DNA of 64,000 nucleotides from Eledone cirrhosa (lineage: Eukaryota), in assembly GCA_964016885.1 (NCBI GenBank), contig OZ024759.1:25854001-25918000 (forward strand), in the 5' to 3' direction. The position numbers and the translations under genes were made by a program. Positions 22,522 through 35,526 of the stretch are shown here, piece after piece. Within the stretch, counting starts at the first letter, position 1; the number at the start of each line of letters is the position of its first letter. The notes below the pieces were generated by a model that saw only the letters and a program-made list of their open reading frames with translations, searched no databases and was not told the DNA's origin.

Positions 22522-22923
22522 TAATTACCTTATGTTGTTTATTACATAATAATAATAATATATATATATATATATATATATATATATATATATATATATA
22601 TATATATATATATATATGTATATATATATATATATGTATATATATATATATGTATATATATACATGTATATATATATACATGTATATATATATATATATA
22701 TATATATATATATATATATATATATATATATATGTATATATATACATGTATATATATATACATGTTTATATATACATATATATATATATGTATGTAGAAG
22801 TTCTATTTAAATTGTTGGGATACAACAAGCAAATATTTTTATAACGGATATAAAGCACTCAACAAATAATTGGAGTAAAAATACGATATTAACAAATGGA
22901 AACTATATTTATAAAACCATATT

Positions 22924-22988
22924 TATTTCATTATACATATTTCAAGGACACCAAGTTAAATTATGGTGTGCTTTCATCAGATAAAATA
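22924..22988 (-). ncRNA. Minimal type I hammerhead ribozyme (Penelope-type)
   Basis: Minus strand reads tattttat CTGATGA aagcacacca-taatttaact-tggtgtcctt GAAA t-atgt-a TA atgaaata. Stem I is 8 bp and the core is intact. Confidence 0.8.
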
Positions 22989-23059
22989 TAATATACAGCA
23001 GTTTTATAAATAAATATTAACATAACTTTAAAGAATGCGACCATTACTGTTATCAAGCT

Positions 23060-23510
23060 ATTTAGGGGCTCTCGCAATTTTAAATACAAGGTATATTTCA
23101 GGTTTATATTGCAATTGATGGTTTATTGCTTGGTTTGTTGTTGCTGTTAATAATGGTGATGTTGGGGATGGCCTTGGTGATATAGTTGTTGTTGTTGGGT
23201 CTATTGTTGTTGTTGAGGTTGTTAGAAATTACGTTGTTGTCATTGTTATACAGTAGAGTACTCGATACTTGCGATAGTAGAGTGTAACTGAGTAAACATT
23301 TAGAAAGCCTTCGCTGTGGACACCACCAGAGGGCCATAGCCCCGGTGGTATTTACATAGCGAAGGCTTTCTAAATCTTTATCTAACATACCGTGTTTCTT
23401 TAGAAATACGAAATTATAATACATATCTGTATACAGCTATGCCTGAAGCTAAATCCACACATATATATATATACCCATTTGTATATGATGCATTTGGTGT
23501 CTGACAGAAC
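23060..23510 (-). pseudogene. Highly degraded GIY-YIG endonuclease remnant of a Penelope-like element
   Basis: TKCIIYK followed, across frameshifts, by a YVGLASG-like segment. It lies upstream of, and on the same strand as, the hammerhead at 22924-22988. Confidence 0.35.
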
Positions 23511-26500
23511 TAGGGCCCCTACTATTAAAACAGTCAAGAAGCCTCTCTTGATATACAACCTCGTAAGAGGCCAACAAGACTGCAGAGGTGTAAGCTGTAA
23601 ATTTCGTTTTTTTTCTATCAAAACTGAAAGTTATAACTGTATTAAACTGAGAAATTAACCTTATATTGTATAATAAAATATATACATATTTTCATATAAC
23701 TGCATTATTCAGCTCAATAGGACATAAATATTTTAAATGAAGTAATGATTTAGATTCCAGACTATGTTAGTTAATGATTTAAAGTTTTTACTAACTTCTT
23801 CGTGATTTCATGAAACTACAGATAGTGTACCTGCTTGCGTGCATATAAATACACACACATGAAAACACACACACACACACACACACACACACACACACAC
23901 ACACACACACACACACACACACACACACACACACACACACACACACAAACACACACGGACTTATATATATATTATATTTATATATGGGTGTATGTGTATG
24001 CGTGTTTGAGAGTGCTTGGGAAAACAATTATATAAATACAAGTATACATGATTTATGTAATATAATTTCGTTCACAAACACACAATATGTACATATGCAA
24101 TATGTATATGAATGTGTGAGTGTGTGTGTGTAAACATTCACACGCATATATTATGTATATGTATATAGTTTAATATATATATATATACATATATGTATAC
24201 ATATATATATATACATATATATATGTATATATATATACATACATATATATATATATATATATATATATATATATATATATACATACATATATATACATAA
24301 ATATATATATATATATATATATATACATACATATATATGTATATATATCCATATATATATATATTAATATCCATATATATATATATATATATATATACAT
24401 GTGTGTGCGTGCGCGCGCGTGCATGTATGTCTGTATGTATGTGTATGTATGTATATATATATATATATATATATATATATATATATATATATATATATAT
24501 ATATATATATATATATATATATATACATATGTATGTGTATGTATATATATATATATATATATATATATATATATATATATATATATATATATATATATAT
24601 TATGTGAGAGACACTTTGTGTTATTCCTAGGCAAAGGTTTCCATTTTTGCTATAATGGCCTATTGGATATCTTTGGAATTGTAAGTAGGTTGATACCTTT
24701 AACATTTTAACTAGACTTCCTGTCTGGTCTGTTGTATTATTTATACAGCCTGGTCATATACACATGCACAACACACCCACAAACATACCTATAAACATAC
24801 ACTCATACACACAATCATACATATAACATACACACATACATACACACAGACACAAACATACGTACATTGATTTAAACACACATACACAAAACAAACACGC
24901 ATATAAAAATGCATATAGGTATATGTGTATATAGTTGTGTGCGTTTATATACAATCATATATACATACATAAATATATATATATATATATATATATATAT
25001 ATATATATATATATATATATATATATATATATATATATATATATATATTATTTACAGCTTCCGTAAATACACACGCACCCACTCACGCATACACACACAC
25101 ACCCCAGACACTACATACAGTTTCCGTAATTAACTCCGGGTAGTGATATACATATTCCACCATACACACATGCATTCCCACACACACACACAGGCACACA
25201 TACACACTCACACAGACACACGTTCACAAGCACACACGCACACGTATGTAAGATTGAAATAAAATACGTTAGTACTTAGTATATTTGGGGACAATTTTAT
25301 GTATTTTCTCTAAATGAATCTTATCTATACCTATTTAATAGAATATAATTGTAAGATATATATATATATAAATATATATATATATATATATATATATATA
25401 TATATATATATATATATATATATATATATATATATATATATATATATTCAAAGCATACATGCATACATATATACATATATACATGCATAAATGCATAGAT
25501 ACATAGATGTATACATGCATACATACGTATTTACATAGCTACTTTCATATATACACACAGTCATATATACATATATACATTCATGCGAACATACATTAGT
25601 ACATACATATATATTTACATATATATGCATACGAGTATCTCTCTCTCTCTCTCTCTCTCTCTCTCTCTCTCTCTCTCTTTATATATATATATATATATAT
25701 ATATATATATATGGACCGATGGATGCATAAATATCTCTGAGTGTAAACAAGGTGTATATATATATACATACATCTGTGCATAGATGCAAACATACGTACT
25801 TGCACACATACATACCTGTACACTCAAATATACATACATACATTCATACATACATGCACACATACATACCGATACACTCATATAAACATACATACATTCA
25901 TACATACATACATACATACATACATACATACATACATGCACACATACATACCCATACACTCATATAAACATACATACATTCATACATACATACATACATA
26001 CATACATGTGCACATACATACATACATATATTTACACACTGCCGCTAAATTTAAACTGAAGCTGTTTCATGTAGCATTCCCGATAGAGATTCATGCATGC
26101 TGATGTATGATATGTGAAAGAAATACTTCTATGAAGGTGCTATAAATACAACTGCACACTGAGTGCTGAATGATAGAGCATTAGATGCACTCTCATATTG
26201 TTGCTACCTGCAAATGTTGCGGCTGACATTACGTAGCACACCAGAAAAAACACTGCACTAAATGCAGTTTATGCTGCAACTGATTGTGACGAGAAATTGT
26301 TGCAGTTTCAACTGCTTTGTTACACGTGAACTTTGCTGTAAGTGATTGATGGCAGTGAATATACTGCTGCAACCTTTGCACATTAGAGGGTTATAAGTAA
26401 GTTATTGTGGTGTGTGTGTGTCTGTGTGTGTGTGTGTGTGTGTGTGTGTGTGTGTGTGTGTGTGTGTGTGTGTGTGTGTGTGTGCGTGCATGTATGTATG

Positions 26501-27030
26501 TCTGTATGTATGTATTTATGTATTTGTGTGGAAGTGTAGGTATTTATATATGTATGTATTCATGTGTGAATGTGTGTATGTATGTATGTATGTGTGTGTA
26601 TATAAGTATGTATGCATACATATATTTATATATAAATATACATATAAACATCCATATTTATATATGTACATATTTATATATATAAGAATATATTTATGTT
26701 GACTCCGTTCTTATAAGTTGCTTATATATATATATATATATATATATATATATATATATATATATATATATGTGTGTGTGTGTGTGTGTGTGTGTCTGTG
26801 TGTCTGTGTGTCTGTGTGTGTGTGTGTGTGTGTGTCTATATATGTATATGTATATATATATATATATGTGTGTATATATATATGTATATGCATATATATA
26901 TATGCATATATTCATATGCATATGCGTATGTGTATATATATATGTGTGTGTGTTTGTGAGTGTATGTGTGTATGAGAGAGCGAGTGAGAGGGAGGAAGAG
27001 AGAGTAGCGAGTGAAAATGGTAGAGGGAAC

Positions 27031-27099
27031 AACTACCCACGACTCGCTGGTAATAACTTTAAGATTCGATACAACGAACATATACATTCATTCAGAAGG
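27031..27099 (+). pseudogene. Penelope-like GIY-YIG fragment
   Basis: NYPRLAGNNFKIRYNEHIHSFR resembles the PLE motif YIGxxxxxFKxRYxxHxxSF. Confidence 0.45.
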
Positions 27100-33640: not shown

Positions 33641-33660
33641 ACTGTCGATATATATATAAT

Positions 33661-33806
33661 ATAGAAATAGCTTCTACAGGACTAGAACTGTTTTATTCGG
33701 GAGAAATCATCATGTAGAAGCCATTTCTATGTTAAATATTTATAGTCTGCTATGTATTGAGTACCTTACTTACTGTGGTTAACCCCGATTGAACCCGGGA
33801 TAAACT
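33661..33806 (-). repeat. ~150-bp TA-embedded repeat with a degenerate hammerhead (paralog of 34396-34540)
   Basis: Long stem atagaaatggcttctac/gtagaagctatttctat encloses aTGATGA...aAAACagttctaGTC. Flank ctgctatgtattgagtaccttacttac is shared with the paralog. Confidence 0.6.
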
Positions 33807-34395
33807 TGTATATATATATATTTATATGTATATATATATATATATATATGTGTGTGTGTGTATGTGTGTGTGTATGTATGTAAAGGTATATGCGTAAGTA
33901 AATATTCATGCATATATATATATATAGGTATGTATATATAAAGATATATATAAATATATAAATGTATATGTATATAGAGATATGTATATGTTTGTAAATA
34001 TGTATATATATATATATATATATATATATATATATATATATATAAATGTATATATATATGTATATATATATGTATATATATATGTATATATATATAAATG
34101 TATATATATATGTATATATATATAAATGTATATGTATATATATATAAATGTATATGTATATAGAGATATGTATATGTTTGTATCTATGTATATATATATA
34201 TATATATATATATTCATAAATATATATTTATTTATATATATATACATTTATAAATATATATTTATTAATATATATTACATTTATAAATATATATCTATAT
34301 ATATACATTAATATATATATATATATATATATATATATATATATATAACAAATTAAATATCTCTTCTACATATATATATATATATTTAATATATA

Positions 34396-34450
34396 TGAGA
34401 TTCTACAGGACTAGAACTGTTTCATTCTTTAGAAATCATCAGGAATCTCA
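34396..34450 (-). ncRNA. Hammerhead-like motif (intact core nucleotides, imperfect stems)
   Basis: tgagattc CTGATGA t-ttc-taaa-gaa-t GAAA C-agttcta-G TC ctgta gaatctca. Confidence 0.5.
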
Positions 34451-34805
34451 TCTATATTAAAACTATATTAAAACTTTTATACTCTGCTATGTATTGAGTA
34501 CCTTACTTACCTAACCTCCGATTCAACCCGGAATAACTTACCTAAATATATATTTATATATATATTTACATGTATATATATTTATATATATATAAATATA
34601 TAATATATATATATATATATGTATATGTATATGTGTATGTGTGAGTGCGTGTGTGTGAATACATGACTCCATATATACAATTCCTACCATTAGGCCTTTC
34701 TAAGTCTTGATATAAACGTTAATAAAGTATATTGTAGTGGTTTGTGTTAACGTAATTATATTATATGATATAATGTACTAGTTAAAACAAGTTTAATACA
34801 TTGTA

Positions 34806-35526
34806 CTTCATGTTAGTAAACGTATTACTAAATATATTCTACAAGAAAATCCATCAATAGATATACTGAGACCCACACACACATATATATATATATATGT
34901 ATATTTGATATATATTTATCCTTATCGAGCCCTCTTTGGATTTTAGTCTTCAAATTTATTATTATTACTATGTATGTATACATATATATGTATGTATATA
35001 TATATATATATATATATATATACAATGATATTAAATAAATGGAAACTATATTCATAAAACCATATTTATTCTATTATATATATTTTAAAGGTACCAAAAC
35101 TTTGGTACGCTTTCATCAGATAAAATACAAAGTTTGTTTTATAAATGTTGACATAACCAAGAAAAGATACCTTAACGGTTCAAGTTTTCAAAACATGAAC
35201 CGTTGAAATATATATAATAGAATAAATATGCTTTTATAAATATATTTTCCATTTGATATCATTGAATATTATACTCCAGAAAACTTGTCGAGTGCTCTAA
35301 ATCAGATATAAACATTTATATTTGTTGAATTACCAACAAATTGACTATCCCATTTGCTTACACACATATATATATATATATATATATATATATATATATA
35401 TATATATATATATATATATATATATATATATATATATATATGTATGTATATGTGTTTGGGTCTCAGTATATCTATGGATGGATTTCCATGTGGAATATAT
35501 TTAGTAATATGTTTACTAACATGAAG
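34806..35526. repeat. Nested inverted repeats (outer 34806-34879/35451-35526; inner ~35037-35085/~35206-35254)
   Basis: Two independent diverged inverted pairs; the inner pair carries hammerhead halves. Confidence 0.8.
35067..35127 (-). ncRNA. Minimal type I hammerhead, paralog of 22924-22988, with G12->A core mutation
   Basis: tattttat CTGATGA aagcgtaccaaa-gt-tttggtaccttt AAAA t-atat-a TA atagaata; palindromic ATAT loop III. Confidence 0.65.

Follow-up and report, generated by a model that had tools for sequence, protein, structure and literature searches.

Type I hammerhead motifs with a long stem II in probable Penelope-like element fragments of Eledone cirrhosa

Background

Hammerhead motifs with a palindromic stem III and a long helix II have been described in Penelope-like elements (PLEs; PMC4209133). 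Junction palindromes, copies placed head to head, a tail on only one side and deletions at microhomologies are described for PLE insertions (PMC3846280, in excerpt), and the same insertion layout together with microsatellite targeting is described in the accessible part of PMC8557442. Retrozymes, on the other hand, are tandem and have helices of canonical size (PMC7229834; 10.64898/2026.07.22.740005; both in excerpt). Here, a stretch of 64,000 nucleotides from the octopus Eledone cirrhosa (GCA_964016885.1, contig OZ024759.1, positions 25,854,001 to 25,918,000), referred to as the window, was analysed for three related loci: copies A and B on the minus strand and the partial copy C on the plus strand, which forms a head-to-head pair with B. 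All three are probably dead, 5'-truncated pseudo-LTR (long terminal repeat) type end fragments of a high-copy PLE family or of its non-autonomous derivative, and as such relics of selection on the source RNA. Judged from core, fold and pairing, A and B are real type I hammerhead motifs, and the stem II of this family is unusually long. A first-pass annotation had described three paralogous hammerheads whose stems II differ and still pair, which stands for A and B only.

Compared to the PLE pseudo-LTR hammerheads (Cervera and De la Pena 2014, PMC4209133), the palindromic stem III is common to both, whereas stem II is longer here (10-14 pairs versus 6-8) and has a fixed C-C at pair 4. In addition, A10.1-U11.1 is the majority state, A9 is followed directly by the first pair of stem II, stem I consists of 8 bp, an internal loop and 11 bp, and no PLE reading frame was seen. 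The departures from the PLE consensus in stem II, at 10.1-11.1 and after A9 are real but modest. With the inverted pLTR insertions of endonuclease-bearing PLEs, as far as described in the accessible parts of PMC3846280 and PMC8557442, the locus shares the truncated head-to-head copy, the palindrome, the tail on one arm, the microhomology deletion and the microsatellite target; it differs in a tail of ~80 nt compared to 30-40 nt and in the presence of end fragments alone. Non-LTR retrozymes and hammerhead satellites such as the cave cricket pDo500 (PMC7229834; PMC2837043; both in excerpt) likewise have a type I motif, a weak stem III, a high copy number and compensatory changes between paralogues, but they are arranged head to tail in tandem, with canonical helices and loop 1-loop 2 contacts, whereas the family in the window is dispersed and inverted.

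Compensatory changes among hammerhead paralogues have been reported for the cricket satellite (PMC2837043, in excerpt), and covarying hammerhead families in PLEs and animal repeats are already published. In the literature on hammerheads in octopus, cephalopods and molluscs no account of this family was found, with the restriction that most subscription papers were outside the search and that supplements not seen could list such motifs. An octopus repeat annotation is silent on ribozymes in its accessible part (PMC13282606). What the locus adds is a hammerhead family of high copy number whose stem II is unusually long and bears a fixed C-C mismatch.

Hammerhead motifs of copies A and B

Copy A (22907..23011, minus strand) was recognized by descriptor match, fold and pair count, and its core is intact. 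Stem Ib (23011-23001/22917-22907, 11 bp) is separated by an internal loop from stem Ia (22988-22981/22931-22924, 8 bp), the core C3-A9 was located by string match at 22974..22980, and stem II at 22944..22973 has 9 of 10 possible pairs with a C-C at pair 4, A10.1-U11.1 and a loop of 10 nt. The segment from G12 to A15.1 and the 2-bp stem III (22932..22943) lie within an 8-nt self-complementary stretch with a tandem G-U in the dimer. Following hammerhead numbering, the predicted cut site after A17 of an AUA triplet is at 22932, and the 3' flank and tail (22795..22906) end in (TA)n. Copy B (35050..35146, minus strand) carries the same motif, with the core at 35119-35113, a stem II at 35112-35087 (11 of 12 pairs, again with C-C at pair 4) and a private G12A at 35086. 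Its 3' flank (35022..35049) has the short form without a tail and also ends in (TA)n in the sequence.

The core C3-U4-G5-A6-N7-G8-A9 reads CUGAUGA in A and B and CUGAGGA in a further palindromic locus, D, and both G12-A13-A14-A15.1 and U16.1-H17 are intact in A, C and D, with G12A in B. Around the core of A and B, helix I is open and stem I has 8+11 bp, stem II 9-11 bp and stem III 2 bp (8 bp as a dimer); the self-complementary stem III/loop 3 stretch is perfect in B, pairs via the tandem G-U in A and is nearly perfect in D. In each of A and B, 32 of 33 positions are paired, with the shared C-C as the sole exception, and the internal loop of stem I has AAUAUG on its 3' side. The strings quoted in the first-pass annotation were all located at their positions, and its observation that the variants of the stem I 3' strand keep eight pairs through G-U was confirmed (8/8 in both copies, one G-U each). 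Its wording that all stems II still pair is inexact because both A and B carry the C-C, a mismatch that it overlooked. Read by eye, the frame of the ATG inside the core meets a stop within 13-17 codons in both copies, so that no conserved frame begins at this ATG.

To assess chance occurrence, a type I descriptor covering the core and three stems with at most one core mismatch was run over the 64 kb. Four matches were obtained, namely A (22980, minus), B (35119, minus, with G12A) and two in D at 22469 (plus) and 22384 (minus), which are not independent because they are the arms of one palindrome. Three of the matches have an intact core, compared to a mean of 0 (maximum 0) in 60 block-wise dinucleotide shuffles; for up to one core mismatch, the four matches compare to a shuffle mean of 0.33 (maximum 3, with 0 of 60 shuffles reaching 4). 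In predicted folding, the ribozyme strand of all four motifs is more stable than the complementary strand, with -23.7 versus -18.3 kcal/mol for A and -20.7 versus -14.8 kcal/mol for B.

Pairing changes and family-wide variation

Between A and B there are nine differences at paired positions, and pairing is kept in all nine. Two are double changes in stem II, at pair 5 (A-U/G-C) and pair 6 (C-G/U-A), and the remaining five differences are one-sided G-U changes, of which stem II holds one (G-C/G-U). Under a null model restricted to transitions, pairing is kept in 9/9 in 0.96-1.1 % of trials and in 0.4 % if two double changes are included, and with changes of any type such full pairing practically never arises. 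This test is generous since the two sequences themselves served to draw the helices and a single lineage was assigned all changes. For stem II alone, the transitions-only null gives p ~0.10-0.12, or ~3 % if two double changes are required.

Four public runs were aligned to 35022-35350 at 80 % likeness. Matches were found for 6,712 of 17,142,217 contigs in X1, 406 of 762,587 in X4, which are not taken as expression, 50 of 8,254,286 in X5, which carries another organism label, and 28,687 of 12,467,656 reads in X21; given so many contigs and reads on the B-C stretch, the hammerhead family is abundant. The statements that follow are based on the entries listed, which were 40 of 119 for variant rows, 15 of 56 for joints and 24 of 472 for loose ends. 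No match to family sequence patterns was found in metagenome contigs or in viral contigs.

G12 accounts for 99.3 % of the depth in X1, 98.9 % in X4, 100 % in X5 and 95.4 % in X21, and therefore G12A is private to B, as the first-pass annotation had implied. At least two of the G-U changes are likewise a private feature of B, one in pair 3 of stem II (97.9 % other letter) and one in stem Ib (99.5 % other letter), and are therefore not evidence of selection on the source element. Other variants are family-wide. In stem I, A or G stands opposite U at 1.3 and 1.4 (28 % and 71 % in X1), and an A-to-G change in loop III reaches 19 % in X1 and 64 % in X4, where dimer pairing survives via a tandem G-U. 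G occurs at 10.1 in 35 % of the X1 depth, A10.1-U11.1 being the majority. The partners of stem II pair 5 vary at matching rates in X1 (1.0 %/1.4 %) and X4 (35 %/43 %). The two main loose-end subfamilies of X21, with 15,345 and 3,886 reads, were also recognized by eye in X5. Both carry the C-C at pair 4, C at 11.2, A-U at pair 5 and U-A at pair 6, in a stem that reaches up to 14 pairs. The subfamily loose end that fully covers the 5' arm has G-C at pair 2 and 12 of 14 positions paired, as read by eye from an unlinked consensus.

Alternatively, a process at the DNA level, either hairpin template switching or arm-to-arm conversion, could have kept the pairing instead of RNA selection. DNA palindromes abound in the window, this process is the right explanation for copy C, the double changes between A and B are all transitions, and the transitions-only result for stem II is as modest as reported above. 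However, arm copying would erase the C-C and the G-U pairs; both copies and the loose-end subfamilies retain the C-C, and the G-U variants are frequent (28-71 % at the stem I positions) on one strand only. DNA-level correction thus fails for A and B, and it leaves the catalytic core and the 95-100 % share of G12 unexplained, which makes it a very improbable account of these two copies. The earlier proposal that the source elements were under selection for RNA structure is therefore partly supported by the sequences: the A-B changes and the family-wide variants support it, while copy C drops out of the evidence along with the G-U changes private to B.

Junction palindrome of copy C

Copy C is an inverted arm (35205..35345, plus strand) that begins at G12 and comprises GAAA, stem III, the stem I 3' strand, the flank and a tail of ~80 nt with a hairpin at 35320-35341. 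It is without the 87 nt bearing the stem I 5' strand, the core and stem II, and CUGAUGA is absent from it. Ahead of GAAA lies a fold-back junction palindrome (35174..35204, centre 35189, 14 of 15 pairs to the centre). From 35189 onwards the right side is the reverse complement of the left, with 14/15 matches, and is followed by an 87-nt jump to G12 at a short near-repeat. The 9/9 pairing of the supposed third stem II is thus a pairing by construction as a DNA fold-back and says nothing about stem II; from the sequence it is best described as a product of insertion or later deletion.

Were the hairpin of C a further stem II that diverged on its own while RNA selection maintained its pairing, a core would be expected ahead of it, but there is no CUGAUGA. 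Past G12, B and C match at 46/50 nt (45/50 for both A-B and A-C), yet the hairpin of C is unlike stem II of B. The supposed 5' arm belongs to the upstream family sequence of B (35147..35189, supported by colinear contig pieces): in 5 of 24 listed contig pieces the ribozyme of B is colinear up to 35186-35188, and paralogues carry other letters beyond 35188, so that this arm is ordinary upstream sequence. Furthermore, the depth collapses over the loop of C. Summed depth, which is not taken as copy number, is 2,925 for the C loop and 478,600 for stem II of B in X1 (~160-fold), 2.1 and 2,881 in X4, and 0 and 156 in X5. Reads that enter the GAAA of C from the 5' side bring a stem of the A/B type (3,886 reads in X21, 1 contig in X5). 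In favour of a true stem, the hairpin of C ends exactly at GAAA and starts with A-U, A-U, as in A and B, its 3' arm has 6/9 letters in common with that of B by eye, and the sequence upstream of A has only a weak match to this segment, with A-B homology upstream of 35157 that is not significant (shuffle p 0.07). Taken with the fit of the fold-back and the 87-nt jump, a third stem II is largely refuted and hardly credible. More generally, this calls for caution, as the fold-back junction of a PLE insertion can look like a stem II with compensated changes.

Element identity

The assignment to PLEs is based on the layout because none of the 139 reading frames of the window contains a PLE domain. 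B and C form a single head-to-head insertion in (TA)n with the junction palindrome, the 87-nt jump and a tail of ~80 nt on C only, and its ends sit in microsatellites. Paralogues have two types of 3' end and inverted joins at varied points, and the head-to-head layout recurs at five more loci of the window, of which D has two intact cores. A 53-AA (amino acid) frame upstream of A was considered as the end of a PLE protein, which is unsupported as the ESM Atlas gave no usable match.

A retrozyme origin, with tandem units of 150-400 nt and circular RNA and with only solo copies present here, would explain the type I motif, the unit of ~300 nt and the missing reading frame. Retrozymes do occur as solo copies, for which the accessible part of 10.64898/2026.07.22.740005 argues a derivation from PLE ends. 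Against this stands that no head-to-tail unit was found in the window or among the joints listed, that stems I and II deviate from the canonical sizes of 6 and 4 bp, and that a head-to-head layout with a tail is a PLE signature. A retrozyme family is therefore improbable.

Several results nevertheless weigh against end fragments of a PLE family shaped by RNA selection. The Rfam hammerhead models gave no match at E<=10 on either narrow stretch scanned, and for the whole window only microsatellite-driven miRNA matches appeared among 150 of 628 listed. As Rfam is a library criterion and not a biochemical one, this means that the architecture lies outside the curated models. A and B lack G10.1-C11.1 as well as the unpaired base A9/10.1, both part of the PLE minimal consensus (PMC4209133), and the one-sided tail exceeds the 30-40 nt described for PLEs. 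A PLE reverse transcriptase or GIY-YIG domain was found by Pfam in 0 of 139 window frames, which fragments need not carry. In predicted folding, the catalytic monomer fold lies above the minimum-energy fold by 5.5 (A) and 4.9 kcal/mol (B), and the stem III duplex is weak, with -2.2 (A) and -3.2 kcal/mol (B). The variants from the public runs are unlinked and biased towards sequences at least 80 % alike; in X21 the partner rates of stem II pair 5 are unequal (34 % versus 3.9 %, where G-U would remain), and U-to-C at 10.6 (20-48 %) has no partner among the rows listed, although A carries a compensated C-G there. Finally, the rows listed hold no family variant at the 12 invariant core positions, which has a probability of 0.20 by chance, computed from 18 variable positions in 145, so that the core is not significantly more conserved than its flanks. 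Despite these points, PLE end fragments are the probable identity of A, B and C.

Function of the motif

In the source transcripts, the self-complementary stem III segments of two end repeats could pair and form a double hammerhead, which would cut after AUA (22932 in A). Dimer cleavage is supported for PLE-class hammerheads (review PMC6765202, in excerpt). Selection on the source RNAs would have kept core and pairing while the subfamilies diverged, hence the covariation, and the genomic copies would then have decayed neutrally, as with G12A in B. According to the accessible part of PMC2553840, this change makes cleavage about a million-fold slower but does not abolish it. In place, B-C and D are unlikely to cut because read-through transcription of a palindromic insertion would give an RNA that folds as a single long hairpin and not as a ribozyme.

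PLE hammerheads are weak cutters in vitro, and the costly catalytic fold and the weak stem III predicted for A and B are in line with such low activity. In another possible function, the protein of the element would recognize the motif as a structured site, and cleavage would be incidental or absent. The accessible part of a study on a lizard PLE (PMC11167929) reports that hammerhead mutants left insertion in vitro unaffected and that RNA-seq contained no reads ending at the cut site, and A10.1-U11.1 and the non-optimal fold would also suit low activity. The general base G12, however, is kept at 95-100 % of the depth, and the loop III variant that spread is the dimer-compatible one. A recognition site is therefore unlikely, though it agrees with PLE fragments on origin and parts from this reading in function alone. 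According to the lizard study, in the part accessible, insertion in vitro did not need cleavage, and the family offers a natural variant library for asking which function keeps PLE hammerheads under selection.

In the lizard PLE, reverse transcription began at two tail-binding sites (PMC11167929, in excerpt). Near the end of the tail, a small hairpin was seen by eye at 22812-22828 in A and 35320-35341 in C as well as in an X21 loose end, with differing loops. The tail-end hairpin of A and C is a candidate start signal for reverse transcription. A more speculative and rather doubtful proposal makes the family a short, non-autonomous passenger of PLEs in which the fixed C-C at stem II pair 4 docks with the conserved AAUAUG in the internal loop of stem I, a new tertiary contact that would let a long-stemmed hammerhead with A10.1-U11.1 cut fast. 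If so, thousands of natural variants would map the contact, and reverse transcription would start at the conserved hairpin of the tail.

Other loci in the window

Locus D (22294..22559) is a head-to-head palindrome of 99.2 % identity with intact type I cores at 22469 (plus) and 22384 (minus), located 250 nt from copy A. It represents a second, unrelated hammerhead family with CUGAGGA, an 11-bp stem II, U10.1-A11.1, a 3-bp stem III and a predicted GUA cut site, and its layout corresponds to that of B-C without the deletion. A third palindromic family (29325-29520 and 39180-39386, with fragments at 36203-36231 and 38655-38741) has GAAA, a 6-bp stem III with a palindromic loop, a GUC triplet and a tail of ~77 nt on one arm. 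As the 5' half of the core is missing at both centres, it is possibly a truncated third hammerhead family. Two further head-to-head palindromes (39055-39145 and 61242-61415, with a fragment at 52130-52169) have one arm ending in (TA)n while the other runs on, and no hammerhead core was seen in them.

The window is AT-rich, and its repeat content, which seems to resemble that of octopuses, includes many runs of (TA)n and (CA)n, trinucleotide repeats and dispersed repeats. It contains what we take to be a mariner-like remnant (17832-18712) with inverted ends of 105 nt and, presumably, LINE-like remnants at 47027-47623 and 61739-62961. A zf-RVT fragment (5673-5849) is the sole Pfam domain above the cut-off among the 139 frames. 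A SINE-like repeat of ~165-190 nt occurs in at least seven places with 84-95 % identity (1724-1888, 5096-5281, 31486-31696, 38290-38462, 39540-40720, 43435-43627 and 53896-54080), including a nested cluster at ~39.5-40.7 kb; its reading frame had no usable match in the ESM Atlas. Two MITE-like, unclassified elements are a GC-richer hairpin element of 88 nt (23293-23380) and an inverted pair of 31 nt flanking a TA run (7474-7569). A sequence of 30-36 nt recurs with 100 % identity beside TA runs at 17570-17599, 34920-34955 and 42343-42378, one of these 70 nt from B, and a degenerate tandem repeat with a period of ~62 nt covers 57586-57901.

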